DNA of 64,000 nt from Tubulanus polymorphus. Its lineage: Eukaryota > Animalia > Nemertea. The stretch is from contig NC_134034.1 in assembly GCF_964204645.1 (NCBI RefSeq), positions 7,476,914 to 7,540,913 of the forward strand, given 5' to 3'. Both the position numbers and the translations under genes were made by a program. The notes below the pieces were generated by a model. That model ran no database searches. It saw nothing but the letters and a program-made list of their open reading frames with translations, and had not been told where the DNA came from. Positions 29,027 through 56,622 of the stretch are shown here, in pieces. Position 1 is the first letter of the stretch. Every line of letters begins with the position of its first letter.

Positions 29027-29393
29027 AGTAATAGGGAATATCTTGTTTCATACCAAAGGTCGAAAGGTCGAGCTCATAAAAAATGAAAAATATGAAAATA
29101 ATAATAATTTCTATTTGAATTAGGAGTGAAACTCATATAAAATGAAAAATAAATTCGAGTGTGCGAACCTTTGATATGAAACAAGATATTCCCTATTACT
29201 CTTAAAATATTCATATATATGAATAAAATATAAATGAATAACTTCTAAAATCAATTTTAATAAAAAATTTAGTATTAAAATGGAAGCAAATAAGTACTAC
29301 TGCCCAACATGTAATATCAATATAGATAAATCCCAAAAAGCAAGACACAATAAAACGAAAACACATTTAGAGAATAAATTGAAACTAGAATAT
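29027..29393 (+). repeat. Left TIR of B (367 bp) including a 174-bp partly deleted terminal palindrome and the first 38 pPolB codons
   Basis: Reverse complement of 48247-48708 apart from a 95-bp deletion and an inverted palindrome centre. Confidence 0.92.
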
Positions 29394-32300
29394 AAAGATG
29401 ATATATTAGAAACTAAATTAGATGAATTAAAGAATGAAAAAGAAACATACAAATGTGATACATGTAATCAATCATTCAGTGATAAAAGATATTATAAAGA
29501 ACATTTAAAATCTAAAAGTCATATTAGAAATAAGAATAATGATATTTTAGGTGAAGATTATTTTGATAAAGATAATGATAAGAAACAGAAGACAATTAAA
29601 AGCATAAAAAATAAATTAAAAAATAAAAGACCATACATGGAAGATGTAAGAAATTATATTAATTCATTAGATAATAAAAAAGATATAGAGATAACCGAAG
29701 CATTTAAAAGTGATATTGGCCCAGCAGCTATCGAGTTTAAATTTCATAAAGGAAAAACATTAGAAGAAAATAAAAAACATTTAGAAAATATGAAAAATAT
29801 TATAAAAATAATTACTGATGTTGAATATCCTAAAATAAGTATATCAGTTAAAGTAAAGTTTATAAAATCTGAAGATAAACCAATATATAATATAAATTCT
29901 CATTCACAACATATTATATCTAAACAACATATAGATGATAAATTAGATAAATGTTATAATGAAGTAAAAACTAAAATAGAAGAGAAATATTTTGAAGGAT
30001 CTGGTTTAATATTTGATGAAATAATATTTATGACTTTACATGTTTATAACACAAAATATAATAAGTTAACTAAATCAAAACCAATTGATGAAAATAATCT
30101 ATCATATTATAAAGAACCAGATATTGAAGCATCGAGTTATATTAAACTACCATTTAAAACTAATGCTGTAATAAATGTACAAAATGAAGATGATAAATGT
30201 TTTCTATGGGCAATTATAAGTTGTTTACACCCAGTTATAGATTATAAACAACATAGTTTTAGATTAACTCATTATAAACCATTTGAAAATAATTATAAGA
30301 TAGATAAGTATCCTGTTATAATTAAAAACATCCCAAAAATAGAAAGAGATAATAATATAAAGATAAATGTATTTGATTTAATCAAATTTCCAAATACAAA
30401 AGGTAACAATATAAAACATTATACATTAGAACCTTTATACCTATCAAAAGATTATGATTCAAACGATGTTATAGATATACTATATTATGAGAATCATTAT
30501 ATGTGGATTAAAAGAATCGATTTATTTTTTAGATCAGAAAATGGTTTCGATAATAAAATATATCTATGTCGAAAATGTTTACATAAATTCAGAACTGAAA
30601 GTGCATTATTAAATAATAAACAATTATGTGAAAATCATGATTATTGTAAATTAGTTTTACCAAATGAAAAGGATAAAATATTAGAATTCAAAAAATATGA
30701 TTACAAAAATAAAGTACCATTTGTAATATATGGAGATTTTGAATCATTCAATAAAGAATTAACTGATCAAGATAGAAAAGAAATATATTATAAAAGAAAA
30801 AAATTAAATTCTAATGAAAATGATTTTTCAGATGAACCACCAAAAACAATACTATCAAAAAGATTCATCAATCAGCTGCTGCTTTCGGGTTATATATTAA
30901 ATCTGATTATCCAGAACTAATTGAAAGTGAATATTATCATTACAGAAATGAAAATGTTATCAATCATTTTTGTGACTTATTAATTGAATATGAAATAAGA
31001 TTTAGTAAATTATTGAATACAAATATAGAAATTATAATGACAGAAGAAGATAAAGAAGCATTTGAGTTTGCAGATAAATGTTTTTATTGTGAAAAGATAT
31101 TTAATTATAAAGATAAAAAAGTAAGAGACCATGATCATTTGAACGGAAAGTTTAGAGGCGCTGCACATGAGAATTGTAACTTACAAGCTAAGAAAATTAA
31201 CTTTGTACCAGTTATATTTCATAATCTATCAGTATATGATGCACATTTATTCATCAAAAAGTTATGCCATAAAATAGAAGAAATTAATAATGAAATAGAA
31301 AGATTAAATTCAAATAGATCAAAAGATAAAATACCAACTTATAAACTTAGAATGTTAGCTAAAACATCTGAGAATTATATATCATTCCAATTTGGTTGCC
31401 TAAGATTTAAAGATTCATATAGATTTTTAAATAGTTCATTAGATAACTTATCAAAATCATTAGTTGATGATGAATTAAAAATATTAAAGCAACATTTACC
31501 AAATAATGATGATTTTCAATTAATGAGATATAAAGGAGGAATTCCATTTTCATTTCATAAATCACATAATGATTTTAACATAACTGAATTATTGAAAGAA
31601 CAATTCTATGATGAATTAAAAAATGAATATGTTAAAGATGAAGTATATAATAGAACATTGAATATTTGGAATCATTTCAAAATAGAAAATCATGGGCAAT
31701 TAGTAGATATATATTTAAAATCAGATGTATTATTATTAACCGATATATTCGACAGGTTTAGAGATGTAAACCTAAAATATTTTAACATTGATCCTTGCCA
31801 TTGTTATTCATCACCAAGTTTAACATGGGATTGTGGATTAAACTTTACAGATCTAAAAATGGATTTGTTAACAAATATAGATCAATTACTATTATTTGAA
31901 AAATCTATAAGAGGAGGAGTTTCAGGTGTATTAGGTGATAGATATTTCAATGTAAATGATAACCCTGGATATAAGTTATTATATATAGATGCAAATAATT
32001 TGTATGGTTGGGCAATGATGGAACCTCAACCTTATGGAGTATTTGAATTAACTGAAGTTTTACAGAATGAAAATAATGATAAATTTGATTGGAAGAAAAG
32101 AATTCTAGATATTGCAGATGATTCAGATACTGGTTACTTCTTTGTTGTAGATTTAGAATATCCTGAAGATAAAAAATTTAAATCTAGAAATCTAGCATAC
32201 TGCCCCGAACATAAAACTGTAACTCATGAAGAATTATCAAATTACCAAAAAAGAATTAAACCCGAAAATCATATTCATACAGAAAAGTTAATGGTAACTC

Positions 32301-33323
32301 AAGAAGATAAATATAATTATGTAGTACATTATAGAATGTTAAAGTTTTATCTAAAACAAGGAATGATCCTAAAAAAAGTACATAGATATATTTCATTTAG
32401 TCAATCTAAATGGTTAGAAAAATATATAGATTTTAACACCAAACAGAGAACTGAAGCTAAAACTGATTTCGAAAAAGATTTCTTCAAGTTAATGAATAAT
32501 GCATTCTATGGTAAGACTTGTGAAAATATTAGAAATAGAAATGATATTGAGTTAGTAAGTAATGGTAAAAGAATTAGACATTTACAATCATATGCTAAGT
32601 TTTTAGGTAACAGAATATTTGATGAAAATTTAGCTGCAGTTAAGATGAGAAGAACATCTATGAAATTTAATAAACCAATCTATGTTGGCGCTTCAGTTTT
32701 AGAATTATCAAAATTACTAATGTATGAATTCTATTATAATATATTACAACCACTTTTTGGAGAAAAACATATAGAAATATTATATTTTGATACTGACAGT
32801 CACATATTAAAGATAAAAACTGATAACATAACTGATGATTTAAAAACATTAAAACATCATTTTGATTTCAGTAATTATCCTAAAAATCATGAATTGTTTA
32901 GCAATGATAATAAAAAAGTTCCCGGGTAAATTCAAAGATGAATTAGGTGGTGAAGAAATGATTGAATTCATTGGTATTAGATCTAAAATGTATTCATATA
33001 AAACTAAAGAACATGAAGCTAAAAAGTTAAAAGGAATAACAAAAAGTGTAGTAGAAAAGAATATTCATTTCAAAGATTACATCAATTGTATATTCAATGA
33101 AGAAGTTAGAAAACATAAGATGAGATGTTTAAGATCTGAAGATCATGAAATGTTTATTGAAGAAATTGAAAAGATAAGTCTAAACCCATTTGATGATAAA
33201 AGATATATTTTAGATGATGGAATTCATACAGTTGCTTATGGTTGTAATTTAGATGAATACTTAAAATTTAAAAGAGAAGAAACAAAAGAGAACGAGATAA
33301 TGAAAATAATTCTAACGTGTTAA
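29280..33323 (+). pseudogene. Protein-primed family B DNA polymerase with N-terminal zinc fingers and an endonuclease VII-like Zn domain
   Basis: YGDFES exo I, CFYC..VRDHDH..G.FRGAAH..CN, FHNL..YD, YIDANNLYG, KLMNNAFYGKT, YFDTDS motifs. Frameshifts at ~30860 and ~32925. Confidence 0.95.
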
Positions 33324-33352
33324 TCAAATTTTAATAAAAATATGTATTATAA

Positions 33353-33708
33353 ATGGAGAGTAAACAAGCACACAGCGAGAACAACAAAACATTTCTAGAT
33401 AGAATAAAAGATACTTCAAATGTCAAATCAGTAGATTATAAATTTAAGAAGTTAAAAGAATTAATAATCCATAAGAAATATCTAATTACAAATATCGATA
33501 CAGTTACTAACAAATATGGAGATAAATTAGTTATACACTTAGAATATGAAGGATTAAAAGGAAAATACATATAAATTCAGAACATATTTACCGGATAGAT
33601 TTCATAGATTATCAAGTGAAGATTTAGAAGAATTATGTTCTGGAGATTTCTATTTCGTATACAAAGGTAAGAATGAAAAAGGGCATCATGAAATAGATTT
33701 CGAATAAG
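33353..33708 (+). pseudogene. Small beta-rich protein (KYG...LP.RF family; possible ssDNA-binding OB fold)
   Basis: ORF 33353..33574 continues past the stop as ...LPDRF...FVYKGK. Function is a guess. Confidence 0.45.
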
Positions 33709-33724
33709 AAAATATGTAAAATAA

Positions 33725-34480
33725 ATGGTAGAATTAAAAGAATACAGAATATTTGTTGATTCAAGAAAACTTACTAATTATAAATCTCATAATTTACTAA
33801 TACAATTAGATAGAGAATTCAAGAATTGTGTTGATTTAAAATTAGTTAATATAAGTTTATGTAATTCTTTTCATAATATATCGAATAAAAGTCTTGATCA
33901 TTTAGCTTTTAAAATTTATGTTAGAAATTTGAATAAATGGTTTCATCTTTATCTAAAACCAGGATTATATAATTTAGGAACATTAGCGCAAGAAATTAAT
34001 AAAAGAGCTCGTTTAAAAATGGGTGCAGCTGCTAGATCTGAAATTAGATTTATTAAAAGTGATAGTTCTAATAAAATAAGAATAAAGTTAACTAATGAAC
34101 AACATAGATTTCTAGTAAGAAAACCTTTAGCTAAACTGTTTGGAATTCTTCCGGATAGACATTATTCAAGTGTTGAAACTTATACAAATATAATGACTTT
34201 TACACACTTTTATATTTATTGCAATTTAATTAATCCTACAAAAACATTTGAAGCAACTAAAGATACAATTTGTAATTCTAGTATATTAAATATTTTACCA
34301 TTAAAAAATGTTAAACAATTTGGAACGCAAATAAATTATAATTTAGCTGAATGTGATTTTAAACCTTGTATTCCACATTTCAATAATTTTAAATTAGAAA
34401 TAAGAAATCATTATGGATATTTAATTGATTTGAATAACTTTCCTGTGATATATGAATTAGTTATAAGATGTAAAGAGTAA
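33725..34480 (+). CDS. Minor capsid (penton, single jelly-roll) protein
   Basis: FVDSR...I.L......LV.ISL.NSF.NI, PG.Y, YIYCNLI and IRN..G.LIDLN pattern typical of Polinton pentons. Confidence 0.75.
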   Translation: MVELKEYRIFVDSRKLTNYKSHNLLIQLDREFKNCVDLKLVNISLCNSFHNISNKSLDHLAFKIYVRNLNKWFHLYLKPGLYNLGTLAQEINKRARLKMGAAARSEIRFIKSDSSNKIRIKLTNEQHRFLVRKPLAKLFGILPDRHYSSVETYTNIMTFTHFYIYCNLINPTKTFEATKDTICNSSILNILPLKNVKQFGTQINYNLAECDFKPCIPHFNNFKLEIRNHYGYLIDLNNFPVIYELVIRCKE

Positions 34481-34496
34481 TTTTTTCACTATATAG

Positions 34497-34830
34497 ATGA
34501 ATATAACTGTTGGACCGAGTATATGTTTTGGATTTGATTTTAAACGTGAGAAAGAAATGAAATTTAACGTTAATGATGAAATTACACATATTAAAAATAT
34601 TGCATTTTCTAATGAAACAACATTTGAGTATGAAACAACAATAGATAAAGAAACTTTAAATGTAGAAAAGATTACTAATTTAATCTTTAAGATTTTATGA
34701 ATTAGATGAAGATTTTATCATCGATGATATTAAAAAAATAATAATTGAAATATATACAAATGAAACTAGTAATGAAATAAATGTTGAATTAACCATGAAT
34801 AAGATAACTAAATATTTTGATGATAGTAAT
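34497..34830 (+). pseudogene. Small acidic protein of unknown function
   Basis: ORF 34497..34700 with a probable frameshifted continuation. Confidence 0.4.
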
Positions 34831-34844
34831 TTTTTGATAAATAA

Positions 34845-35070
34845 ATGAGTGATAATAAGTGGATAATAACTGGATTATATAATGGCGCATTACTATCAGT
34901 TGGAACTGTTGGTTATTCAATGGTATTAAAAAAAGTATTCAAAATGGGAAGTGTTAATGTTGATAGATTTGATATAAATGATATTTTAAAATTAACATTA
35001 GCAGTTACTTTAATTTAACTATTGATTATTTAGAAAAAACAAAAATATATTCCTCCCATATAAATGCATA
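34845..35070 (+). pseudogene. Small hydrophobic (two-helix) protein
   Basis: TAAATG start; reads ...YNGALLSVGTVGYSMVLKKVFKMG...ILKLTLAVT with frameshifts. Confidence 0.55.
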
Positions 35071-35088
35071 ATTTTTTTTGCTAAATAA

Positions 35089-35483
35089 ACGGCTTCTGCA
35101 ATTATAACTATTATAGGATCGGCAATTGTTAACGCTTTAGCATTTATTGGTGGTGGTTATTTATTCAAGCATATTGATAAAAATAGTTCATTAGGAGAAC
35201 AAAGAAGACATAATTTAGCATTAGAGAAATATAATAAAGCAGCAGAAGAATATAGAGAAAAGAGGCAAAACTATATGGATTATATTAACAAGGAATTATA
35301 TGATCAGAAGATTTCACACGGAGATTTTCAATCAGTTGATGATGCAATGAGTTTATATAACGCGGTAACCAAAAAAGAAAAATTACATCTATACAAACCT
35401 TAATTATCTGATTATTATACTTGATAATTTGGATTTTAGGAGGAACTGTTATTGTTATATTTGTTGCTTATAAGTTTACTAAT
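35089..35483 (+). pseudogene. Hydrophobic N-terminus plus coiled-coil virion-type protein (start codon mutated to ACG)
   Basis: (M)ASAIITIIGSAIVNALAFIGGGYLF...EQRRHNLALEKY follows TTTTTTTTGCTAAATAAACG. Confidence 0.6.
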
Positions 35484-35511
35484 TAATTATCTATTATTTT
35501 TTGTTAAATAA

Positions 35512-35946
35512 ATGGATGATAAAGTTAATAATATTGATATTATTCCTCATGATATAAATAAAACTAAATTAAAAACATATTTAGAAAAACAAATATTAGA
35601 ATTTGAAAGTGACTTAAAGATAAAAAAGAAAAAATATTTAAAAAGTAGAATTATATATTATCTTATTATAAGTGGTTCGGTTACAATTAGTTCTGTAATA
35701 ACATTTCTAGCAATATTCAGTCCATTAACACCTTTAGCTATATCAATTGGTGTATTAGGATTAAGTTCAAGTGTTTTAACCGGTATAAGTTCAAAATTAA
35801 ATATAAAAAGAAATAAAGAAAAAATTAAAACTAATATAAAAGAAATTAATAAATTAAAGAATACACTAGATTATATAATAAGTTTAAATGGCCATATAAC
35901 AGTTGAAGAACAAGATAAATTATTAAAAGAATTGATAAATTATTAA
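35512..35946 (+). CDS. Two-TM membrane protein flanked by basic coiled coils
   Basis: Two adjacent hydrophobic stretches in an intact 144-aa ORF. Confidence 0.7.
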   Translation: MDDKVNNIDIIPHDINKTKLKTYLEKQILEFESDLKIKKKKYLKSRIIYYLIISGSVTISSVITFLAIFSPLTPLAISIGVLGLSSSVLTGISSKLNIKRNKEKIKTNIKEINKLKNTLDYIISLNGHITVEEQDKLLKELINY

Positions 35947-35962
35947 TTTTTTAATTATATAA

Positions 35963-37346
35963 ATGGCAGATAGTTTTCCAAAAGCTTTCCAATATAATAA
36001 ATCAATTAAATATAATATTCCAGCAATAGATTTTAATAAAGATATTACATATAGAAATGAAGTTTTAGATTCATTAACTAGAAATTTATGTTACTGAAAC
36101 TAATAATTTTAATGCAAAGATGGAAAATATATTTCATGTATATTTAATTAATTTTAAAAAATTGAAAGATGAAAAACAGTGGTTATTAAAATCTAATATG
36201 AAGTATTGGCAGAACCAATTAAATTTTGCTGTTTATTGTGCAACAACAGGATGTGGAATTAGTTGGAATGATCATTTGAACAATTCTAATTATAAATTAA
36301 TTCAAAGTTTATTTAGATTTCATACATACTTTCAAATCAGAATAATATTAAATGAATTAGAGTGCGCTTTACCAGGATCTAGGTATTTAAAAGAATTAGA
36401 TAATAATATTAATTTATCAAAGTTTTATAAAATTTGTAATGAATTTAATATAGATATAAATAATTCTGATTTTAGAACAAAAATTGGAACAATAAGATCA
36501 CTTCCTTGCCCTAAAAAGATTGCAGAATATTGTGCACTTCCCATACCATCTAATAGTTTTTATAATATCTATAACAATAAATTAGGTTATGGTAAAATAG
36601 AAACAAAGGATTTAAGAACATTAAATTTCAATAAATTACCGAAATTTTATGATCATTTAAAACAAGAAAACAATAATGGTTGGGTTTATTTTATTTTAGA
36701 AAATAGTGAAGGTTTTACTAAATCAGGTATAGAAAGAATAAATCAATCTATTAGAACTTATTTGATATGTATTTTAGGTGCGCAAGTTGAAACAAGATCC
36801 CCAATAATTGGAAATTTAAATACATCATTTGATACACAGAAACAATTCAAAGTATTATTTGAAGATTCAATTCATAATGATAAAAATAGATCTATTCCAG
36901 AAAACATTGTAAGATATCAAAATTATTTAGATAAATCACATATTAGATTAAATTATTGTATAGGCCCTAATCTATTAATTATTTCTAATGATTTAGTACT
37001 AAAGATGGGAAATATAATTGGTTATAATAATCTAATTAAAACTGCAACAATAAATAATTCATTTGGATTAAATGATATAAATAAAAAGATTATTACTGCT
37101 CCAAAATTAATGGAAGGTGAAAAAAATAAAAAACATATTCAATCAACTGAAACTAAAACTAATAATATTAAATTAAATAATGATTCTAAAATAAAAGATT
37201 ACAATACATCAGAAAATATAAAAACTGATATTATTCAACATGATATAATTAAAACTAATGATGATAATAAATCCCATGAAAATACTAAATTAGCTATAAC
37301 TTGTATAGGAATTGTTATAGGAGGAATATTATATTTTAAATTTTAA
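35963..37346 (+). CDS. Conserved Polinton protein (YWQNQLNFAV.CATTGCG) with C-terminal TM; true start probably 35963 with a frameshift before 36120
   Basis: 408-aa ORF; upstream TAAATG-MADSF segment is conserved in copy A. Confidence 0.75.
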
Positions 37347-37362
37347 TTTTTATAAGATATAA

Positions 37363-38370
37363 ATGTATGTAGAAGGTGGAGAAGCTTATGAAATGGGAGA
37401 AATGGGAAATAATAATGAAGGATTTATACCTGATGAACCACAACCTGATTTTAATGAAACTAATATTGATAATGATGATGGATCGGCATATAATTTTAAT
37501 TTAGCAGATAGTGGTTCTAAAGCCCCTTCAACAGACGAGTTTGATAAAAAAACTAGATCGAGAATAAATGCTGAAAATGAAAATCCAGATTTTGTAAAAC
37601 AAAATTTAGAAAATGATGAATTTATATATAATTTCCTACCTATATTTGAAAGATTTGGATATAATATAAATGATAGAGGTGCCAGATATTTAGTAAGAGA
37701 ATTAAAATTTTTAGATGGTGAATATTATTATCATTTGAAAGATGATTATTTTATTAATATCACTTATAAAAATCAAAACAAAATAATAGCAGAATCGACT
37801 TTGAGTAATTTAGAACCATCTAGAATTAAAAGAATAAGTAATAGTAATGAAATAGAAAATGTTACCGAAACAGAAATAAATCAAAATAAAAGAGTATTTA
37901 AACAAAGAATTAATGAATTATTTGAAATAATAAATGATAATTTAGAAACAGAAACAACTTCTGAACAGAATGTAACTTCTAAAACTAGTTAATTTAAATC
38001 AAATAAAGTTCCAATTGAAAAACTTTTACCGAATGGAATAATTGATGCAACGGATCAAGAATTAGAAGATTTAAATATATTTTCTGATAAAGCAATTTGA
38101 GAAATTATTAGTACAAGAAATGAAGCTGATAAATTTGCCCTTGAAAAAAGTTAAAGAGATTTTAAAATAAGAACATTAAAAAAAGAAAAAAATGATAAAT
38201 TTAAAGAAATAGAACAATTAAAATGAGATGGAGATAATAAAGTTATTGAAGAAATTGAATTTAAAAACATAAATGCATATTAAAAAAAAAATTGATGATT
38301 TAGAATATAACATAGAATTTCAGAAAGAAGAAATTATTATTAAAATCATATGATTATAATATTAATAGAG
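37363..38370 (+). pseudogene. Degenerate tandem paralogue of 38437 gene
   Basis: Aligns with 38437 ORF (EGGE.YEMGEMGNNNEG...); stop at 37990 and decay after it. Confidence 0.8.
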
Positions 38371-38436
38371 TTATTAGTTATAAGTTATTATTTAAATAAG
38401 AAGGTATCACAATACCATCATTTTTTTATAATGTAA

Positions 38437-39903
38437 ATGGCAGAAGGTGGAGAAGATTATGAAATGGGAGAAATGGGAAATAATAATGAGGGATATATTG
38501 ATGATGATTATAATGATGCAGAAACTAATATTGATGATGGTAATGAATCAGCATATAATTCTAATTTAGCAGATAGTGGTTCTAAAGGCAAATCAACAGA
38601 TGAATTTGATAGAAGAACTAGATCGAGAATACCTATTGAAAATGAAAATCCAGGTTTATTAAAGGAAAATTTAGAATATAATGAATTTATTCATAATTTC
38701 AAACCTATATTTGAAGAATCTGGATATAATATAAATGCCAGAGGCGCCAGACTTTTAGTAGAAGATTTAAAGTTTTTAGATGGTGAATATTATTATAGGT
38801 TGAAAGATGATTCGGATTATTATATTAATATCTCTTATAAAAAAGAAGAAAAAATAATAGCAAAATCAACTCTGCTTAAGTTAGACCTATCTAGAATTAA
38901 GAGAATAATAAATAGTAATGAAATAGAAGATGTAACACAAGAAGAAATAAATCAAAATAAAAGAGTATTTAAACAAGGAATTAATAAATTATTTGAAACA
39001 ATCAATAATAATTTAGAACCAGAAACTAGTAGACCTAATTCAAGAGAAGTTCAAACTGAAAAAATTTTACCGAATGGATTACTTGACGCAACAAATCAAC
39101 AATTAGAAGATTTAGATATATTTTCTGATAAAGCAATAAGAGAAATTATTAGTATAAGACTTGCAACTGATAAAATTATGCATGATAAAAGTATAAGAGA
39201 TAAAATTAGAACTTTAGAAAAAGAATTAACTGATAAAAATGAAGAAATAGAACAACTAAAGTCAGATCTTGATCGTAAAGCAATTGATGAAAATGAATTT
39301 AGACAAAGACATGCATATTTAGAAAAAGAAAAAGATGATTTAGAATATAACATAGCATTACAAAAAGAAGAAATTAAATTATTATTAAAATCATATGATT
39401 ATAATATTGATAGATTAAAGGATGTTTTTAAAAGATATCTAATAAAACCAGATTCTAGAATATCATTGAAAGATAGAATAAAATTATTATTTAAGTTTGA
39501 AAGAATAACAATTCTTTCAATTCTAACAGCAGTAACTATGTTATTTACAACAATAGGTTTAGCAATATCAAATGCTTTGAAATCTACTCCTACTCCAAAT
39601 AAACCAGATAAACCCCCGAATGATAATAATTCTATACAAGATAAAGTTAAAGATGGTTTAAAGAAATTAGCAAAATATTTATGGGAACTATCTAAAAAAT
39701 CTGCTGCAGCATTGCCAGGATTTATTGCATCAATTGTTGGTTTTATATTGAAATCTGCAGGAAACATTATTAACTTTGCTGCTGAACATATTATTTTATT
39801 TTTAATTACAGTTGTAAGTGCTATTATTTTTGGGTAAGTAAATATGATATCAAAAAATATCAAGAAAAAATAATAAAAAATAAACATGATAAAAAATAAA
39901 TAA
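38437..39903 (+). CDS. Acidic/coiled-coil protein with TM and amphipathic C-terminus (candidate membrane-penetration protein)
   Basis: 466-aa ORF. TAA at 39835 corresponds to TTA in copy A, so the natural end is slightly downstream. Confidence 0.7.
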
Positions 39904-39923
39904 TTAATTTTTTTGTTTAATAA

Positions 39924-41172
39924 ATGGGTGGGAGTTATATCAATCCTTCTAAGAATCATAGAATATCTAATGCTATTAAAGCAGAAAGATCACATCATAT
40001 AATTACTCATAACCCTTCTAATATTAATCCTGATGAAACTTTATATGTTAGAATTCCGAGATTAACACAAAATACTTTTTGTGTTCCAAATAGTATTTAT
40101 TTATCAGCCGATATAAAAGTAACCGGTAATAATAATAATTATGTTGTTGATAATGTTGGAAGATATTTGATTAAAAAATTAACTATAAAGATTGGTCCAG
40201 AAACAGTTTTCTCATTAGATGATTATAATTTATTTATGCATTATAAAGATTTATGGTTAACTAAAGAAAATAGAAGTAATATGATATTTCAAGGAATCCA
40301 ATCAGAAAACCAAAATAAATTAAGATCAGAAGCGCATAATGCAATATTAACTAATGCTATAGATAAATTGATAAAAAGTATATATGGAAGCAAATATAAA
40401 ATTCCATTAGACTTTGAATTGATAAATAATAATGCACCTTTATATAAATACGCAATTCAAGAAGACGTTATATTTGAGATAACATTTGCTCCTGTTAATG
40501 AAATTGTATTATCTAGCGTTAATAAAGATATGAGTTATAAATTATCGAATATATGTTTAGAATATGACACAGTAACTGATGAAAATATTTCAAGTATAAT
40601 TCAAACTCAATACAATCAAGGATTTTCATTATTATATGATTATATTGATAAATTTAAAACTGTAATTATTAATGCAAATGATGAAATTATTAATGAGAAT
40701 ATTAACTTCCCAAGAAGATCTATTAAAGGTATATTAATATTTTTTTACCATTGCAACATATACTAATGGTGCAATAAATGTTGATAATTATTATAATCCT
40801 GAAATAACAAAAGTAGAAATAACTATCGAAGGTATAGCAAATAAAATATTTTGTCAAGGAATGAGAATGATTGATCAATGGCCAGAAATTAGAAAACATT
40901 TTATGAATGAAAAAGTGAAATCATCTGAAAATTGTAACATTAATCAAATTGATTATTATACCGGTAATAAATATGCATTATGGTTAAATTTTAGAACAAC
41001 AGAGGATAATTCATTACATGGTTCTGGAAAAAAACTCCAGAACACTAAAGATGGAATACAATTATTCATGACAAAGAATAAAGGAATCAAAAATTTTAAA
41101 ATGCACATTTATATTATATCTGACGCGCAATTAAATATTGTAAATTCTCAATTGAATAGTGTTATGTATTAA
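39924..41172 (+). pseudogene. Major capsid protein (double jelly-roll), copy B
   Basis: About 415 codons of beta-rich sequence (HNPSNINP..L.VRIP, LEYDTV, PRRSIKGIL, ALWL.FRT, ISDAQLNI). One frameshift in the T-run at ~40740. Confidence 0.85.
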
Positions 41173-41205
41173 AATTTTTAACTTTAATAAAAATATATAT
41201 AATAA

Positions 41206-42387
41206 ATGGAAGGTGGAATATATGAAATACAAACTCCAAGTGAAATGATAACAGATATATATTATATATTACCGTATGATGAATACTGTAAGTATTTTGG
41301 AGATTACTTTAATCAATTCAAATATAGAATAAGTAAAATAAAAGATAATATTGAAACTAAAATAGAAAATAAAATTGAAACTAAAATAGAAGGTAAGAAT
41401 GATATTGAATATAAAATAGAAGATAATATTGAAACTAAAATAGAAGATAGTAATAATATTGAAACTATAATAGAAGATGTAACAGCATCTACATCTTATA
41501 ATATACCCTCTACATATGATATTGAATCAAAAAAGACAAATGAAAAATATTGTGACGTATGTAAACAGTATAAAAGTTATAAGAATTGGGCAACTCATCT
41601 TAATTCACTCAAGCATAAGAAAAATAAGAATAAGACTATAAATGAATTGAATAATGATAGTGAAATTGATAATGATAATGTTAAAGAAGATAAATATTGT
41701 GAAGAATGTGATAAATATATAAGTCGTAGTAATTTTTCAAAGCATAAATTAACACAAATACATTTGGATAATATAGAAAGAAATATATGTGAAAAGTGTA
41801 ATGTTGTTGTATTACCTAAAGATAGAATTAAACATGATAATTCTTTTGAACATACAATAAAAGCTGCTGATTCAAATAACCTTTATAGAGTACCAACTGT
41901 ATTTTTTGATATCGAAAATAATTATCATAGGAAATTATATAGATCAATTTTTATCGATTATGCAAGAAATAATCCAAAACAAGTATTATCAGATATTGAA
42001 ACTGGTCGGACGCATATAAAAATTGATCTATATAATTATTGGGGTATACATTATTTCATAAAATTTAAAAATATAGATTTTTTAACAGAATTGAAAAAAG
42101 TTGCTGCTAATGATAATATAAGTGATAACTTTGATGAAATAATTCAATACTACAGTTATGAAGATTTTTTACAGGATGTTATAAATAAAATAAGAAATGA
42201 TGCAAAAAATAAATATAAAAATATAAGTGAAGACAAATTAAACCAATACATTTATTTAACTTATGAATTGTTTGCTAAGGGTTTGAATAGTATTGGTTAT
42301 CATACTAAACTATTAGGCGAAAGAAAATCACAAGAATTAAAAGATGCATGGCTCAAATTGTTTTCAGAATTAGAATCAGAAAAGTAA
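41206..42387 (+). CDS. Multi-zinc-finger (C2H2/U1-like) accessory protein with IETKIE repeats
   Basis: Three CxxC...H.....H fingers in an intact 393-aa ORF. Confidence 0.75.
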   Translation: MEGGIYEIQTPSEMITDIYYILPYDEYCKYFGDYFNQFKYRISKIKDNIETKIENKIETKIEGKNDIEYKIEDNIETKIEDSNNIETIIEDVTASTSYNIPSTYDIESKKTNEKYCDVCKQYKSYKNWATHLNSLKHKKNKNKTINELNNDSEIDNDNVKEDKYCEECDKYISRSNFSKHKLTQIHLDNIERNICEKCNVVVLPKDRIKHDNSFEHTIKAADSNNLYRVPTVFFDIENNYHRKLYRSIFIDYARNNPKQVLSDIETGRTHIKIDLYNYWGIHYFIKFKNIDFLTELKKVAANDNISDNFDEIIQYYSYEDFLQDVINKIRNDAKNKYKNISEDKLNQYIYLTYELFAKGLNSIGYHTKLLGERKSQELKDAWLKLFSELESEK

Positions 42388-42404
42388 TTTAAAATATGAA
42401 TATA

Positions 42405-43012
42405 ATACCCCCTTGTGTCTTTATTATCTTTAGTAGGCTTAGTACTTTTAGTACATAAAGAATAAATCTTTATTTTATTAGTAGTGAATAAAATTATCTT
42501 TAAAACTACTAAACTACTAAAGACAATAAAGACATAAATATATATATATTACTGTTTCAATAATTATATTTATTCATCTGATGGATTTTATATATTACTG
42601 TTTCAATAATTAAATCTATTTATGGCGCATATTTATTATATATTACTGTTTTAATAATGATAAAAATCATAGATTTATCATATATAAAAATTATTTATAT
42701 ATCTATTTTTCTAAGTACTAATAAAATAAAGATTTATTCTTTATGTACTAAAAGTACTAAAAGTACTAACGATAATAAAGACATAACAAACACATATAGA
42801 TGTAATAAATATCATAGAATTATCTATCTCACAGATTTATTATATATATTTGATTCAGTAATGATAAATCTATGTGTGTTTGTTATGTCTTTATTATCTT
42901 TATTATCTTTAGTAGTTTAGTAGTTCTATTTTATTTTTAAAGTATTAATAATATGAAGATTTATTCTTTATGTACTAAAAGTACTAAAGATAATAGAGAC
43001 ATAAGGGGGTAT
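42405..43012. repeat. Inverted-repeat cluster between convergent gene arms of B
   Basis: ATACCCCCTTRTGTCTYTATTATCTTTAGTA arms at both ends, plus further internal inverted copies (e.g. 42721-42786). Confidence 0.75.
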
Positions 43013-43062
43013 CAGGTATTAGGGTATCTAATAGGGTATCTAATACATAGATATATAAATAG

Positions 43063-43674
43063 TTATTTTATAAATTTATATTCATAGGGAAATTGTAGTC
43101 TGAGTAATAATTTTGAACCTTTTTTATTCTTTAATTTATTCATATATTCATCATGTAATTCAGTAGGTATAATTTGATTTTCTTCCAATGATTGTTGCAT
43201 AGATTTTTTATCTTTCTTATAAAATAAAACTAGAAATCTTATATTCTCCCTAAAGTCTTTAACAATTGAATTATATTTTTGATTTAAAACCCATGTTGAT
43301 ATCCCAAAATGTCTCCCAGAGAAAGCTAGATAACATAACTCACTTTCTCTAACTTTTGAATCATGTAAATTAGCGCAATCATCTACAATGAATAATGTAT
43401 TTGATCCTTAATAAGTATCAATTGCTATTTTAATGCAATTATCTAAATTTTCTTTTACTGTTTTAGGATCTAATATAATAAACTTTTTTATCTTAACTAT
43501 ATCTCTATTATATGTTTTATTCATTTCATAAGTAGGACAGAATAATATTATATTATCAAAATGATTCTTATAAATAGTTTCTAACAAGTCTAATATGAAA
43601 TGTGTTTTACCACAGTTGGTTACTCCAGTAACTAACATATTATGCGGTTCGAATATAAATAAATCTTTATTCAT
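43063..43674 (-). pseudogene. A32/FtsK-HerA packaging ATPase, copy B
   Basis: GVTNCGKT, FIVDDC, SGRHF motifs. Single premature TAA at 43408-43410. Confidence 0.9.
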
Positions 43675-44779
43675 TTATTCTTTTAATTTTACTAGATATA
43701 ATCCATTCATTAAATTTATCATCATATCATTTATATTTCACCAAAGAATACTTTTTCCCTTTAAGAGTTTTTGTTTTCAATACTTTTTCTATTTTGTATT
43801 CTATTTCATCTGGATTTGGTACAAGTGATAATTCTTGTTCATAGAAATAACCTAATATTTCTTCATCTTTTAGATCTTCTAATTTATAAACAAATGGTTT
43901 AGTTAATATTATCTTTTTAATCTTGAATATTTCTTCTGTAAAATTTGGGGTATAACCTTTATAAAAGGTTTTTCTATATTTAGATATTCTTACGTGTTGT
44001 CCAATTTTGAATCTAGGTTCACCGAAATCATGTGTAACAAATGCTCCATATAAATTATTCCAAACTATTTCCGAATTATCTTCTTTTCTAGCGTGTATAG
44101 GTTTCATATTTATAGAACTATGTTTAGAATTATTGTAACCTTTCACTAAATCATCTAATACATCGATATATTTATATGTTTCATTAGCAGTAAAATATTT
44201 CCACATTCTAGTTTTCAATGTTTTATTAAATCTTTCTATAATAGATGCTTTTTTATCTGAGTGTGTTGAAAAATAATCTACATCGTTATCAGATAATAGT
44301 TTTTTGAAATGTTTGTTATAGAATTCCTTACCTTCATCAAATTGTATCTTATCTGGAATAGCTTCTTTAAATATAGATTTAAAAGCATTTGTCACTCCTA
44401 TTCCAGTTTTATTTTTGATTGGAATTGACCATGCGTATCTACTGAATATGTCTATAACATTCAGTATCCAGAAATATCCTTTGTTGTATTCTTCTATGTT
44501 CTTCATGTCAATTAAATCAGCTTGCCAATGTTGATCGATATATGAAACCATAACTTTTCATGTTAAATAAGTTTTATCCATTTTCTTGTGGATTTGATAT
44601 GTTGGTTGATTTTGTAACCATGATTTTAATTCGCTATATTTTATATCACCGTGTGGGTGCCGTACGGCACCATTTTCATTATTAGATTTAATTTTATTCC
44701 ATAATTCTGAAACGTTAGAATATGATACTTCACTTTCTGGGTTATAATATAAATCTCTTAAATATTGTTCTTTTTTCAT
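43667..44779 (-). pseudogene. rve integrase with chromodomain, copy B (two in-frame TGA)
   Basis: WQADLID, FDEGKEF, IIERFNKTLK motifs. TGA at 44558-44560 and 43727-43729. Confidence 0.92.
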
Positions 44780-44785
44780 TCTATT

Positions 44786-45154
44786 TTAATCCATTAATAT
44801 TAATCTTGGTTTATTTTCAATGACTTTATCATTTGACTTATTTGGTATGATAGGTTTATTGTCATTGGAATCATTATTGTTATAATCAGATTTATACTTA
44901 TATTTATATATTACACCGGAGAATATAATAACTGTTACTAATCCAATTGTAATATATAATTTATAATTACTTCCAGCATTAGAAGAATCAGATGGATTAT
45001 TATTTGAATCAATATCAGATAAAGTCTGTGATTCATTTATATCAATTAATTTCTTTTTCTTAGCTTTTTTTAATTCTGAAGATCTTTTACCTAATTCTCT
45101 TGCCCATTTAATTTGTTTCTCGGATCTAGCCTTTTTCTTAACTCCATCACTCAT
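44786..45154 (-). CDS. Basic N-terminus, single-TM protein
   Basis: Intact ORF conserved in A, B and C. Confidence 0.75.
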   Translation of the reverse strand: MSDGVKKKARSEKQIKWARELGKRSSELKKAKKKKLIDINESQTLSDIDSNNNPSDSSNAGSNYKLYITIGLVTVIIFSGVIYKYKYKSDYNNNDSNDNKPIIPNKSNDKVIENKPRLILMD

Positions 45155-45749
45155 TTATTTTAGTTAATTTTTGTTCTGATTCATTTTCTGTTTCAGCGTT
45201 TGGTTGTAGTACATCTGTTTCGTTCTTACCTGATTTATATTCCATAGGCTTAATGTTCGAAAATGTTATGACGCCAGTAGAAATTAATGTCATAACCGAT
45301 CCTAATTGAAATGAAGCATAACCAACCCATTTTTGTAATTCAGTCATAACTAAATAGTCATTTTTCAAATCACTATATAATTTATTTTCATCATCAATTG
45401 GTATTAACTGGTTACATAACTTAGAATAATATTTGACAATACCATCTGAAATAGAATCATTTATTCTAGCTAATCTAGCTTCTTCATAAATCTTAAAATA
45501 TTTTATTACTTTATCTGGTTTCATAGAGTCTAGTTCTTGAAAAGTAATGATTCTATTTAAAAACTCATTAGTTTTTCCACCGGCAATCAATAGTTCTATA
45601 TGATGCTTACAATATAAATAGTATTCATAATCTATATTGTTATTAACTTGAATAGAATTAGAAACAACTGTATCTTTATTATCACTTATACCCAAATCAT
45701 CTAATGTTTTTTCAATATCAATACTATTCTTACTCGATTTCTTTGACAT
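45147..45749 (-). CDS. Conserved helical Polinton protein with C-terminal hydrophobic segment
   Basis: Intact 200-aa ORF conserved in A, B and C. Confidence 0.75.
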   Translation of the reverse strand: MSKKSSKNSIDIEKTLDDLGISDNKDTVVSNSIQVNNNIDYEYYLYCKHHIELLIAGGKTNEFLNRIITFQELDSMKPDKVIKYFKIYEEARLARINDSISDGIVKYYSKLCNQLIPIDDENKLYSDLKNDYLVMTELQKWVGYASFQLGSVMTLISTGVITFSNIKPMEYKSGKNETDVLQPNAETENESEQKLTKINE

Positions 45750-46926
45750 TTATATTAGAGAAATTTAATAAGAAAAATATAATAAGTATTCTTCAAATGA
45801 TACTAGATAGTTAAAGTTAAAGAACTCGATATTGACTACTGATACTAGCTATTTGAGTTTAAAGAATTTCTATTTGAATCTATTCAAAATATAAAGTATT
45901 CTCTTTTGAAAAGAAAGTATTAAAAATATAATAGAATTCACTAGATAGTTGAAGTTATTGTTTTTTTATTATATTTTATTTAAATTAGGATTTAGATTAT
46001 CTCACTACTATTGTTTATCTATTAGGAGCAGTAATTATAACTGTCCAGATAAGTCATTTCGGATTCTTGATAATAAATCCTAAAACTGAAAATAAATTCA
46101 AAGAAACGACTGGTGGAAATACTATTTCATAAACACACGTATATTTTATTCTACAATCATTATCGATTTCCACATTCCAAGCCGCTCCTGAGAGGAGCGG
46201 TAAGGTATGCGTGGAATGCAGGAATCAATAAAGTACAATACAACATCTGTCACTGTGTGTCATTAACAACAGCTTAATGACGCAATTGAAATTCCGGCAA
46301 ACGTAATGCATTGAAAGCCTATACAGTGAGGCTAAACTGCTACAATCTCATGAGTTGAAATATCCATAATTTCTGATTCCACATCCATCCATCTTCACTT
46401 TCTTGGTTCAAATAGCAATGGTCTTCTTGTTACGCGTAGCATTTTGTTATCTAAAAGATAAATATCTAGCGTAGAATAAAACTAACTTGAAGTTGTAGTT
46501 TTCAAATAAGATTAATACACTTACACATAACCATTTGTGGCGCATCTTACCAGGATAAGTTTTACATGTTTAACGTTTCACAACGCCTTAATAACAACAA
46601 AAACAGTACTTACATTTATAACTGTAAACTCCTAAAATTGTGTTTATAGAGAGAATATCCTATACGTTCCTATGCTTATGTGCTGCGCGTTTATAACTGC
46701 CAGTTATTCACTAGCTAAACACCGTCTGGTGCAACAGATGTTCCTTCTTTTGTAATATAATTGATTAATCCTTTTCAACTGAAATAGCACGTTCGATCAA
46801 TATTCAAATGAGGTGCACCCTATTCAACTGAATATGAAATGCGGCACAGATGTTTTTGTAAACAACCTAATATAATTACATACAGGCGGTTTGACATAGA
46901 TCGAGAGTAACCGGTTTTCTAAGCGT

Positions 46927-47568
46927 TTAACATTCAACGTATTTTTCTTTATGTGTTGAGTTCCATAATTCAACAAATGTCTTTGCTTTATCCAGTTGAT
47001 CTAAATATAACTGTATATTTAGTTTATTAGATTTAATAATGTTTTCCTTCTTTTCTAAAGGTCTTAAATTTCTCCAGTTCCAGATTAGCTTCTTATTATA
47101 ATCATCACTCATGTCAAATTTAGAAATAGGCAACACGTGATCAATATGAAAGTATTCACCATAATTATCTATATTCATTTTATCATCGAATTGAAATATA
47201 ATCCATGATTTAAGAAATTTATCTGTACAACCCAACAAATTAGATTTAGTGTTTCTGAATCTGTTTCTTTGTTGAATAATTGTGTTAATCTAGATCTTAA
47301 GCATTGTTTCAATCTAAAATTAAGATCTGTTTGATATCTTTCTCTCATATATTCTGCCATATAATAATTATAATGTTCTATATTATCTTCTCGGTATTGT
47401 TTGGTATATAGTTTTACAGCAATATTGAAAACCATCTTTGCTAATCTTACGCTTACTAAATTCTGTTAATGATTTATCTAATTCACATTTAGAACACTTC
47501 TTGTAATATATATTTATAACACCAGCGTTATTTGTAATATTGATAGTTTGTGGTTGTTCTGATTCCAT
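46927..47568 (-). pseudogene. HNH endonuclease, copy B
   Basis: Three frameshifted ORFs; KKCSKC..YCCK and FHIDHVLP..NWRNLRPL..KEN motifs. Confidence 0.85.
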
Positions 47569-48246
47569 TTATTATACATATTTTTTACTAAATTGGTTAA
47601 TATTTTAGAATCCTCTTCCATTTCTTCGACCAACGTCATCCTTTTTCATTCCTCGCTGCTTTTGATTAGTCGTTTCGATTCCTTTATATCTAAATCATAC
47701 CACTGGGCTAAACCGCGCATTCAGGCGCGCTTTTGCTTAATGCGCATGCGTTAATCATAATTATATATTCATTCTATAAATTCTGTAAAAAAGAAACAAC
47801 ACATGCGTTACATGCGTCACATGCGGCCATTGATGTCCGGTTTTGCTTAATGCACATGTGTTAATCATAATTATATATTCATCCTGTAAATAGAAACAGC
47901 TGAACACAGAAAATTCAAACGCATTCATGTCTGCATAGTAACAGCTGTAACAGCTGAGAATTTATAGATTTATTCCATAGCTCTTTACATGGAATGTATA
48001 TAGGCTCAAATAGAATCATGTTCTAGTATATACAGCTATGCATTTTTTAAATATATTTTATTTGAATTCTATTTGATATCTCACTACTTTTGTTTATCTA
48101 TTAAGAGCAGTAATTATAACTGTCCAGATAAGTCATTTCGGATCCTTGATATCAAATTCCTCAACGTATTGTTCATTATTTGGATCATTGTTCCATTGAT
48201 CAATAAATTTCTTTGCCTTTGTTAACTGTTCTGAATATAACTGTGA

Positions 48247-48708
48247 ATATTCTAATTTCAATTTATTCTCTAAATGTGTTTTAGTTTTATTGTGTCTTGA
48301 TTTTTGGGATTTATCTATATTGATATTACATGTTGAACAGTAGTACTAATTTGCTTCCATTTTAATACTAAATTTTTTATTAAAATTGATTTTAGAAGTT
48401 ATTCATTTATATTTTATTCATATATATGAATATTTTAAGAGTAATAGGGAATATCTTGTTTCATATCAAAGGTCGAAAGGGCTAGTGAGTAAAAAATGAA
48501 AAATATGAAAATAATAATAATTTCTATTTGAATTAGGAGTGAAACTCATATAAAATGAAAAATAAATTCGAGTGTGCGAGAATTATTTTTCATTTTATAT
48601 GAGTTTCGCTACTAATTCAAATAGAAATTGTTATTATTTTCATATTTTTCATTTTTTATGAGCTCGACCTTTCGACCTTTGGTATGAAACAAGATATTCC
48701 CTATTACT
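48247..48708 (-). repeat. Right TIR of B (462 bp) including a 269-bp terminal palindrome (48440-48708)
   Basis: Arms pair around loop TTCGAGTGTGCGAGAA centred at ~48574. Confidence 0.93.
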
Positions 48709-49917
48709 CTGGTGAGTCCACTAGACCAGCCGTTGAGAGTCGAGACTGGCCAGTTTTCGCTAACCGTCAGGGCAGTATGCGGCACTGTCTTTTTGAAGCC
48801 ATAGTCTGGGGTCCTTCCCTGAAAATTTGTTCAATTTATTCTGAGGGCTTTTTGGCTATCTTTCTTTTCTGACATCTTTCATGAAAAGGGCTAATGGCTG
48901 AATCTGAATAACTTTCATAATCGGAGAATCCAATTTAAGATCATTCTTATCAATTATCATGGCCAGTTTTAAAACTGTTTATTGACAAAACTACAGGAAC
49001 CACATAAATAATAAATCTTCAGCAAAACACAACAGCTCTTACATTTGTAAAGATGAGAGATCCATGGAAATATCAAGTAACATTTTTTTAGACAGGGAAT
49101 TAGCGGAACACCGGAACGTTGCTTGTATGGTGCGTTTGCACCCGTCGCAAAAAACGTCGTGATAAACGAAATCAGCTGGACTAGGGCCAGGAGCTGAGAG
49201 TGATACAATGGAACTCCATTCTGATATTTAATGAATAATTCATTCACTAAATTTATGTTATCTTTAGTATTTTTAATTCATGTCCATGTTTCAATTCATT
49301 CGTTGAAATCATAGTACACTAAACAGATTCCGCGTGTGTCGGACTTTTTTTTAAACTCTTTGGTAATCGGCATTCGTAATATACATACATCTATCATTCT
49401 TCATCGAAAACCCTAGATCGAACGCGAAGTTTAAACCCTTGACTAGCGCGATTCTTAGCACCACCAATTTGAAGGGGCCATGGCTAACTCTTTTTGAGGG
49501 ATTTTTGTACACTCAAAAATGGATTTTGGAATTTGAGGCGTTTTTGGTGGATTTAGGGGCTGTAGCCCCGTATTTGGAGCCAACTCGAATCACCGGACCA
49601 TCGGTGTCTCACACTAAGAGTGGCCCACTGACCGTAGCGAGAGGCCGGTCCCCGGTAGCGGTTGATCGAATATTTTTCGTTTCAAATGAAACGTTTTTCG
49701 CATATCGATATTCATAGTTAATGTATACGCCACTGCCTGCGCTCGTGTCGTAGTATACGCCGATGTTGAAAAATATACACTGCGGTGGCGCTAGCGGGTG
49801 GACACCCGTACTATAAAACAAGTCGTATCTCGTATGTCATATGTCGTATCTCGTATGTTGCATCTCATATCTCGTATGTTATATCTCATATCTCGTCTGA
49901 GGTCTTCCATAGAATAT

Positions 49918-50360: not shown

Positions 50361-50789
50361 GATTCTTTTCTTAGGCTCCGAGGGACCAATTTTATGTCAG
50401 GAAGACATAAATAATAATACAATATAATTCGTGGCGGGAAAATATTCCCGACACTAACATATCGGGATCCCTGTGGTTTCTATCACTCAGCCTTACGAGT
50501 AATTGAGGTCTACGACTACTGCATTCAAGAGTGAATAATATACCATCAACTGGACATTCATTAAAGGATATAAAATTCAAATTTTTATAATTTTACAAAA
50601 TCCTTTCTTGAATTTTTGAAGTTTTGAAGTTCTTAATATACTAAAGTCAAGTAGAAGTATGGTAAAATAGAAGGTACCGGTACCATGTACGGCGGTAGTA
50701 ACACAGACTACTCTGTACTGCGCATAACTATCAAAATCAATCAGGCTGAGGGTCTATGACATTTCAGACGTAGTCTAACACCTATTTTA

Positions 50790-51174
50790 TTTATTGAATT
50801 ATCTGACTTCATTTTTATTTTATTAGAACTATTACTTTTTAAAAATTTAATATCAAATCCAGCATCACTACCTAATTGGACTCGAGCTCTTCTATTAATT
50901 TCTTGCGCTAATGTTTCTAAATTATATAATCCTATAATCCTGGTGTTAGAATAAGACTAACCCATTTTTGTACTTTTAATATAAACTGCAGAGACTCCAT
51001 GTTCAATAGTTTTATTCGATATATTGTAAAATGAGTTACATAAACTTATATATACTAATTTTAAATCTACACAATTTTCAAATTCTCTATCTAATTGTAC
51101 TAGTAAATTATGTGATTTATAATTTGTAACTTTTCTGGAATCAACAAATATTCTATATTTTTTAATTCAACCAT
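50790..51174 (-). pseudogene. Penton-like gene fragment of old Polinton D
   Basis: MVELK..RIFVDSRKVTNYKSHNLLVQLDREF matches 33725. Confidence 0.75.
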
Positions 51175-51229
51175 TATCTTTAACACAAAAAATTACCTCG
51201 AACAACTAAAAAATAATTTTAATAAACTT

Positions 51230-52470: not shown

Positions 52471-52475
52471 ATGTT

Positions 52476-56265: not shown

Positions 56266-56534
56266 AGTAATAGGGAATATCTTGTTTCATACCAAAGGTC
56301 GAAAGGTCGAGCTCATAAAAAATGAAAAATATGAAAATAATAACAATTTCTATTTGAATTAGTAGCGAAACTCATATAAAATGAAAAATAATTCTCGCAC
56401 ACTCGAATTTATTTTTCATTTTATATGAGTTTCACTCCTAATTCAAATAGAAATTATTATTATTTTCATATTTTTCATTTTTTACTCACTAGCCCTTTCA
56501 ACCTTTGATATGAAACAAGATATTCCCTATTACT
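56266..56534. repeat. 269-bp terminal palindrome of C
   Basis: One visible difference from the reverse complement of 48440-48708. Confidence 0.93.
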
Positions 56535-56622
56535 CTTAAAATATTCATATATATGAATAAAATATAAATGAATAACTTCTAAAATCAATTTTAATAAAAA
56601 TTTTAGTATTAAAATGGAAGCA

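Follow-up and report, generated by a model that had tools for sequence, protein, structure and literature searches.

The way in which animal Polintons are expressed, and their possible need for a helper virus, is an open question, on which a Polinton in the genome of the nemertean Tubulanus polymorphus bears through a clade-specific, position-specific promoter. We analysed a window of 64,000 nt (assembly GCF_964204645.1, NC_134034.1, positions 7,476,914-7,540,913, forward strand; "the window" refers to this whole stretch), which holds a degraded Polinton, copy B (29027-48708, 19,682 bp), two partial copies, A and C, and a piece of a sister subfamily, fragment D. The original prediction for this locus, made from the DNA letters, held that most of the Polinton genes begin behind a poxvirus-like promoter, in which a T-run or an A-run is followed by TAAATG over the start codon, and that the element might be a virophage or satellite of a poxvirus-like helper. 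Our analysis showed that the TAAATG feature is real, selected and lineage-specific. The sequence comparisons described below give good support to its identification, together with an upstream T, as a late promoter of poxvirus type. We further consider it fairly probable that these sites serve as promoters for the RNA polymerase of a poxvirus-type helper, of which the element would be a virophage-like parasite.

To evaluate the motif in the window we used 17 hand-chosen gene starts of copy B, leaving out seven open reading frames (ORFs; at 31037, 32889, 36120, 40861, 44551, 47178 and 47435) that were judged to be inner segments of disrupted genes. Sixteen of the 17 starts have an ATG, and 13 of these 16 read TAAATG. 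By comparison, TAAATG accounts for 28 of 418 internal ATGs on the sense strand (Fisher p 3e-12), for 14 of 275 ATGs on the antisense strand and for 4-9% in Markov controls; the motif is far above the chance expectation. All twelve TAAATG starts listed in the original prediction were recovered, each coordinate being the A of an ATG with TAA directly before it; a thirteenth, at 45749 on the minus strand, was absent from that list. The TAAACG reported at 35089 is also present, and there the start codon has been lost in copy B. The starts without TAAATG are those of the polymerase, of the integrase and of the gene at 34497, where TAGATG is a near miss. That the protein-primed DNA polymerase B (pPolB) and the integrase lack the exact motif had been anticipated: pPolB starts with TAAAATG behind an A-run, and the integrase has no such motif at all. 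Copies A and C, for which the motif had likewise been claimed, keep TAAATG at nine of 12 mapped orthologous starts (major capsid, 41206, HNH, and two each of ATPase, 45154 and 45749), and lack it at the 37363-type start in A and at both integrase starts; the putative minor capsid start of fragment D lacks it as well. Both promoter classes, T-run and A-run, occur as described. A claim that fell was the use of TTTTTNT after stop codons as separate evidence, as at 35072, 35498, 37347, 38421 and 39908 it coincides with the T-run that belongs to the promoter of the following gene, and it is found also inside the pPolB coding region (30967, 31081).

Relatives of the element served as a control. When metagenome contigs were searched with the capsid, 37 loci were obtained, of which 33 were counted (L033 and L035-L037 were dropped as degraded or marginal), and the same search of a viral-contig collection gave no match. 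In a quick capsid tree of 31 rows (L026 and L032 were placed in groups without a row of their own) the window element lies within a clade of 16 rows (SH-aLRT 98). At the starts of core genes, taken from eight orthologue groups, TAAATG was found in 41 of 49 cases in this clade, in none of seven in the sister group and in none of 55 in the outgroups (p 1e-22). AT-rich loci outside the clade have it at 0 of 14 core-gene starts. When all homology-supported ORF starts were counted, antisense shadow frames included, the corresponding figures were 66/90, 0/10 and 4/160. Clade members with 32-44% GC (L006-L010) keep the motif at 16 of 18 listed starts, and it is retained where the gene order of the clade is rearranged or divergent. 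Among AT-rich viral contigs that were chosen for holding the motif, and are thus biased toward it, 48 of 499 starts were TAAATG among the matches listed, which included no poxvirus-like contig to serve as a positive control.

The sister lineages also provided a Kozak control. TAAATG places T at -3 and is not explained by Kozak context: a purine occupies -3 at seven of 49 core-gene starts in the clade versus 47 of 62 outside it. G at +4 is frequent in the clade but not distinctive (31/49 versus 32/62). For the analysis of the surroundings we scored 62 clade starts, after removal of the near-duplicates L002 and L013; in four of them the TAA of TAAATG closes a long in-frame upstream frame. The suggestion that TAAATG merely reflects high AT content, stop-start coupling or the host's Kozak context draws on the composition of the element, which is ~76% AT, and on the frequency of TAAATG inside its genes, and it is hardly credible, because the composition-matched outgroups and shuffles refute it and all three causes are excluded. 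TAAATG is found also in a distant Polinton, L040 (38% GC, with its ATPase on a very long branch), at six of six starts; a search with L040 gave no further loci. Its occurrence in so distant a lineage fits an external driver.

We next compared the sequence upstream of the 62 starts with that upstream of 122 internal TAAATG. T is found nine bases before TAAAT in 56 of the clade starts and in 39 of the controls, whereas the best position reached 44 when the 25 nt upstream were shuffled 5000 times. This T is kept in 33 of 38 clade starts without a nearby upstream stop, and in copy B it precedes 16 of the 17 starts. The vaccinia group-I late consensus (vaccinia consensus strings were taken second-hand from Table 1 of PMC11423596) matched 20 of the 62 clade starts and one of the 122 controls, with at most 13 matches in shuffles. 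Late promoters are described as carrying a T-core 5-7 bp before TAAAT (PMC5294985), and the vaccinia resolution sequence, which is active as a late promoter, reads T7-N8-TAAAT, with the same spacing as in the clade (PMC8956199, Table 1). TAAAT(G) overlapping the ATG is the described late signal of poxviruses and entomopoxviruses (PMC11980589, PMC3061580), and African swine fever virus (ASFV) initiates at another motif (PMC7163114). The clade shares with vaccinia late promoters the TAAAT over the ATG, the T-rich core a few bases upstream and the T-runs before membrane-type genes. Moreover, the promoter class tracks orthology: the major capsid gene has a T-run in nine of 12 cases, and an A-run precedes the ATPase in four of five, the zinc-finger gene in three of three and the putative minor capsid gene in two of two. 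In vaccinia, late genes are mainly those of membrane and morphogenesis, and intermediate genes include those of DNA-binding and packaging proteins (PMC5294985); the division by gene type between T-run genes (capsid, membrane-type) and A-run genes in the clade echoes this division.

Among the frames scanned by Pfam (30, 28, and 44 chosen from 120) there was no poxvirus-type RNA polymerase subunit. Since no RNA polymerase gene was thus detected in the element, the likeliest reader of its promoters is a poxvirus-type helper. The vaccinia early core, AAAANTGAAAANNA, stands upstream of genes at none of the 62 clade starts, which matches the access of a satellite genome to post-replicative, but not to core-bound early, transcription. 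AATAAA is not avoided in clade coding regions (155 observed versus 165 expected, 3.3 per kb), as expected if RNA polymerase II (Pol II) is not the reader, and TTTTTNT is rare in them (17 observed versus 44 expected). In the mechanism that we propose, an excised or incoming Polinton genome would reach the helper's cytoplasmic factory, where the post-replicative machinery of the helper would initiate inside the AAA of TAAAT and slip, giving a non-templated poly(A) leader. The poxvirus polymerase is known to slip on the TAAAT initiator and to add such leaders (PMC6211774). The leader would replace the unfavourable T at -3 by A and so repair the poor start context, with which the frequent G at +4 agrees. 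Genes with an A-run (polymerase, ATPase, putative minor capsid, zinc-finger and HNH) and those with a T-run (major capsid and membrane-type) may differ in the timing or strength of their expression, and VLTF3-like genes, which are carried by some copies, may tune the helper's late machinery or compete for it. Packaging would then make use of the capsid and ATPase that the element encodes, and its integrase would bring it back into the germ line.

A probable VLTF3/A2-like gene was recognised in fragment D as a broken gene (51242-52372), one piece of which matches Pox_VLTF3 in Pfam (E 0.011). Its read depth is ~70-310x versus ~1x in the neighbouring flank, and hence the gene is present in many copies of the family. 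An intact homologue, P0061 (45% identical to the fragment D gene), matches a terminal open frame in L005, a member of the clade; this frame has a TAAATG start behind an A-run. The P0061 domain aligns collinearly with three VLTF3 proteins of giant viruses, with a score of 20.4 bits against a shuffle maximum of 20.3 (0 of 1000 shuffles reached it). When a model of the VLTF3-like protein (pLDDT 39) was submitted to Foldseek, six of the 50 best hits were VLTF3 entries, of which cowpox A2 ranked second (E 0.011), and none had E below 0.001. Searches with this gene gave no match among PDB sequences, one lead below 0.9 in the Atlas and no further loci in the locus search. We regard the gene of fragment D and P0061 as probably VLTF3-like. 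The zinc-finger protein at 41206 was also considered as a VLTF3-like candidate, and the alignment comparison does not support it. Next to the VLTF3-like gene of L005, and divergent from it, lies a deoxynucleoside kinase gene (10343-10981; Pfam dNK 1.7e-31), whose TAAATG promoter is of the T-run class. Pairs of divergent TAAATG promoters, placed back-to-back within less than 50 nt, were seen in L009 (360-409), L010 and L011, and resemble the bidirectional promoters described in poxviruses (PMC3185747).

Several observations weigh against transcription by a poxvirus-type helper. The best-conserved T, at -9, differs by one base from the position published for vaccinia (46 of 62 clade starts have T at -10), and the likeness to vaccinia was judged from published consensus strings. 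The A-run class had been likened to vaccinia intermediate promoters, and this did not hold: TAAAAA-N14-TAAA, with the vaccinia distance of 14 nt, was found at none of the 62 clade starts, and TAAAAA lies here 10-11 nt before TAAA (11/62 clade starts versus 0/122 controls). With N10-11 in place of N14 the class is real but cannot be classified as vaccinia-intermediate; it may be a variant of the late type, because T at -9 is common to both classes. AT-rich outgroup coding regions likewise keep AATAAA, and TTTTTNT is under-used in other groups too, less strongly (observed/expected 0.5-0.8), and not in L040. The AT-rich outgroups L017, L019, L029, L030 and L034 begin six of nine core genes with T-A(3-8)-ATG, so that an initiator akin to that of the clade may reach beyond it, or an A-rich Kozak context may mimic it. 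The 62 clade starts are not phylogenetically independent. As for the VLTF3-like gene, support for its assignment is moderate, as Pfam gave no match on the intact P0061 and the profile-profile comparison was not significant. VLTF3 has already been reported in a polintovirus subgroup (PMC11131425), and VLTF2/3 in small viruses without a polymerase of their own (10.64898/2026.06.19.733378); the gene is therefore context and not a novel finding, and the main rival explanation can draw on it as well. Coral polintoviruses are transcribed in the sampled colonies, where promoters were not examined (PMC11131425). Finally, no RNA run holding the element and no helper sequence were found in the collections searched; dependence on a helper is likely.

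That main rival is transcription by host Pol II in the nucleus, redirected by the VLTF3-like factor of some copies (with host TBP or YY1) and with no helper involved. It can draw on the probable VLTF3/A2-like gene in fragment D and its close relative, with the high read depth given above, on the small viruses described with VLTF2/3 (10.64898/2026.06.19.733378), and on the nuclear entry that integration requires of the element. We nevertheless consider this explanation unlikely. The A-run is too near the ATG to be a TATA box, which for Pol II is spaced by 25-30 nt, and AATAAA is not avoided in the clade's coding regions. Copy B has no VLTF3-like gene, and L040, with the same motif, belongs to a different lineage. 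In addition, initiation at TAAAT would leave almost no leader, and the T at -3 would make a poor context without A's added by slippage, which has been shown for the polymerases of poxviruses and yeast plasmids (PMC6211774). A reader may also be sought in a cytoplasmic element that has its own RNA polymerase and lies outside Poxviridae, either a large virus related to poxviruses or a linear plasmid like yeast pGKL2; we think this less likely still. The yeast plasmids pGKL1/2 are protein-primed and are not known to have a capsid or integrase, and they need a conserved upstream element, ATNTGA, which was found in only one of the 62 clade starts. They resemble the window element in their TAAAN initiator with poly(A) leaders, and in that a dependent element is read by the polymerase of another element (PMC6211774), and a helper outside Poxviridae would also suit spacings that are off those of vaccinia by 1 nt (late) and by 3-4 nt (A-run class). 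TAAATG over the start codon is, however, a signature of poxviruses and entomopoxviruses (PMC11980589, PMC3061580), and ASFV differs (PMC7163114). It is very improbable that the grammar is an unused relic of a helper-dependent ancestor: every copy in the window is degraded, as this would predict, yet the motif persists across capsids that are ~50-80% identical and over rearrangements, it is found on lineage-specific genes (deoxynucleoside kinase, VLTF3-like), with gained genes bearing a full promoter in L005, and the family is young, as its terminal palindromes are identical at 268 of 269 positions.

Transcription by a poxvirus-type helper leads to a broader proposal, which we hold only tentatively: entire germ-line Polinton lineages of invertebrates would be endogenous virophages of poxviruses, silent until an infection of poxvirus type, when the late polymerase of the helper would switch them on, possibly as an inherited antiviral defence. 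The TAAATG grammar would then have arisen, or been adopted, at least twice, in this clade and in L040. The start context provides a genome-scale classifier, separating Polintons that are likely helper-dependent from those that are likely transcribed by the host. If the proposal is true, start-codon context alone would predict helper-dependent Polintons and would point to poxvirus-like viruses still to be discovered in the hosts, including hosts in which none is known, and parasitism in the style of virophages, perhaps with inherited antiviral defence, would reach into the germ line of animals.

Among virophages, Mavirus has CroV and Sputnik has mimivirus as its helper, and Mavirus carries an integrase and a protein-primed polymerase, as the window element does. 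Virophages have no RNA polymerase of their own, and none was detected in the scanned frames of the window element; both have one motif before nearly all genes. Promoters that virophages have in common with their giant-virus helper are described (PMC11464507); the window element differs in its animal host, Polinton-type capsid and poxvirus-type motif, and its helper is a postulated one. Poxvirus-associated Polinton-like viruses are already published, without promoter analysis, from occlusion bodies of entomopoxviruses (Barth et al. 2024, PMC11296320). The words promoter, motif and transcription do not occur in the main text of that paper, and in its supplement TAAATG appears twice, in repeat tables. 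Those elements are likewise small, Polinton-like and proposed to be parasites of poxviruses, but they are physically present in occlusion bodies and all four encode an adenovirus-type protease, whereas the window family is linked to poxviruses by promoter grammar, lies in the germ line, and has a retroviral-type integrase and no detected protease (no Pfam match to an adenain-type protease among the element frames scanned, where the sensitivity of Pfam for this family is uncertain). With animal Polintons/Mavericks (Polintoviricetes), including adintoviruses (PMC8502044) and coral polintoviruses (PMC11131425), the window family shares the terminal inverted repeats (TIRs), 6-bp target site duplication, pPolB, rve integrase, A32-like ATPase and double-jelly-roll capsid, and it differs from them in its long palindromic ends; promoters are not mentioned in these two papers. 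The sister Polinton lineages have the same capsid and membrane genes, but no TAAATG and an ordinary Kozak context. We found no paper describing the TAAATG grammar in Polintons, in a literature where subscription journals were thinly covered and the supplements of two preprints (10.64898/2026.10.13.758929, 10.64898/2026.06.19.733378) were outside the scope.

The original prediction had also described the ends of the element as poxvirus-like. Imperfect palindromic ends were indeed found, but inspection of them by eye gave no clear candidate for a concatemer resolution sequence. Copy B at its right end (48440-48708) and copy C at its left end (56266-56534) have 269-nt imperfect palindromes, with 128-nt arms in copy B, and these are identical at 268 of 269 positions, mismatches included, so that the mismatches are inherited. 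At the left end of copy B (29027-29200) the palindrome is shortened: one arm is deleted, and the loop and inner part lie in the opposite orientation; a flipped inner part is thus seen at one of four ends, together with a deletion. The end of copy A is a 111-nt palindrome with the same loop as in B and C and with outer arms that differ yet are still paired. By eye, a T4-N5-TAAAT that faces outward was noted at a distance of ~70 nt from the palindrome; vaccinia has the longer T7-N8-TAAAT. Poxvirus telomeres are AT-rich, incompletely paired palindromes that occur in flip-flop forms (PMC8956199), and the Polinton ends are compatible with hairpin-based replication or resolution, a reading that rests on the one flipped end. 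Five of the seven matches to the vaccinia early consensus in the window lie in the palindrome arms of B and C (29079, 48492, 48656, 56318 and 56482) and represent essentially one event; the other two are at 46082 and 52031. Two further near-matches per arm were noted by eye. Reads over 48584-48664 show family copies in which the palindrome arms are shorter or different.

Copy B has the features of a Polinton/Maverick: AG...CT-ended TIRs (left 29027-29393, plus strand; right 48247-48708, minus strand), the 6-bp target site duplication CTGGTG (29021-29026 and 48709-48714), pPolB, rve integrase, A32-like ATPase and double-jelly-roll capsid. Its plus-strand genes begin with pPolB, which has an endonuclease-VII-like insert and is broken into three frames (29280-33323; Pfam DNA_pol_B_2, PF03175, 4.7e-17, and Endonuclease_7, 1.9e-4). 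A small broken gene with no assigned function (33330-33701, start 33353) and the putative minor capsid gene (33702-34480, start 33725) follow, both with an A-run promoter and TAAATG. The tentative identity of the latter comes from its family, whose top PDB match is a P1 chain of PBCV-1, a weak one (E 0.08), and whose Atlas neighbours are unnamed viral proteins. T-run promoters precede the next set of genes (34481-39849), which are small or of membrane type and have the starts 34497, 34845, 35089, 35512, 35963, 37363 and 38437, and in copy B the gene at 37363 is a truncated duplicate of that at 38437. Then come the double-jelly-roll major capsid gene (39900-41172, start 39924, T-run and TAAATG, with a frame break near 40740) and the zinc-finger protein gene (41183-42387, start 41206, A-run and TAAATG). 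On the minus strand lie the A32-like packaging ATPase (43066-43697, start 43674, A-run and TAAATG; an internal stop; Pfam Pox_A32 3.6e-5 and 3.5e-5 in two pieces), the broken retroviral-type integrase (43673-44779; Pfam rve 1.1e-9), whose start is not TAAATG in any of the three copies, two conserved genes with TAAATG starts at 45154 and 45749 (44786-45773), and a broken HNH-like gene (46927-47591, start 47568, A-run and TAAATG), with a weak HNH match on the L001 homologue.

In copy B, stops or frame changes interrupt the genes for the polymerase, the capsid protein, the ATPase and the integrase, as well as several small ones, and a tblastn comparison with intact relatives agrees with where these breaks were placed; copy B is therefore a fossil. 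Full-length relatives of the major capsid exist, the nearest intact one being P0001 (78% identical). The model of P0001 (pLDDT 86) is a double jelly roll that aligns with the PBCV-1 capsid over 346 residues (Z 27.4, rmsd 3.2), and its fold is no nearer to the poxvirus scaffold (Z 20.9) than to other large-virus capsids (Z 27.4). Copy A (1-20106, plus strand) is partial and interrupted by Pao retrotransposons, and copy C (56266-64000, minus strand) is partial and inverted; both have the same promoters. Fragment D (50744-53274) includes, besides its VLTF3-like gene (plus strand), a polymerase piece and a minor-capsid-like piece, both on the minus strand. In an independent DNA run the read depth is several hundred over most of the element versus ~1 on the neighbouring flank, and the family therefore probably numbers hundreds of copies, a rough figure.

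Additional observations were made in the window and its relatives. At 37347-39414 a tandem duplication includes the 5′ part of the gene for a 466-aa membrane-type protein with its promoter (79% identical), and the low read depth over it suggests that few family copies share it. An imperfect AT-rich palindrome (42405-43012) lies between the two convergent gene blocks of copy B (self-inverse score 150 versus a maximum of 42 in 30 shuffles), and long intergenic gaps of other TAAATG-type Polintons also hold imperfect palindromes (L004, 3183-3255; L005, 9082-9359; L040, 4657-4840); these are possible terminators or origins. In L040 (719-8745) the integrase has a chromodomain, and its N-terminal part, which has no Pfam match, looks protease-like. 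BEL/Pao retrotransposons are found at 9554-15090 and 25482-26468, one of them inside Polinton copy A; the presence of Pao elements in the flanks indicates an animal host. Around copy B (29020-48709), 103 reads of run X5 span from flank to flank without the element (short side 21 nt), reflecting either an empty site or insertion into a repeat.

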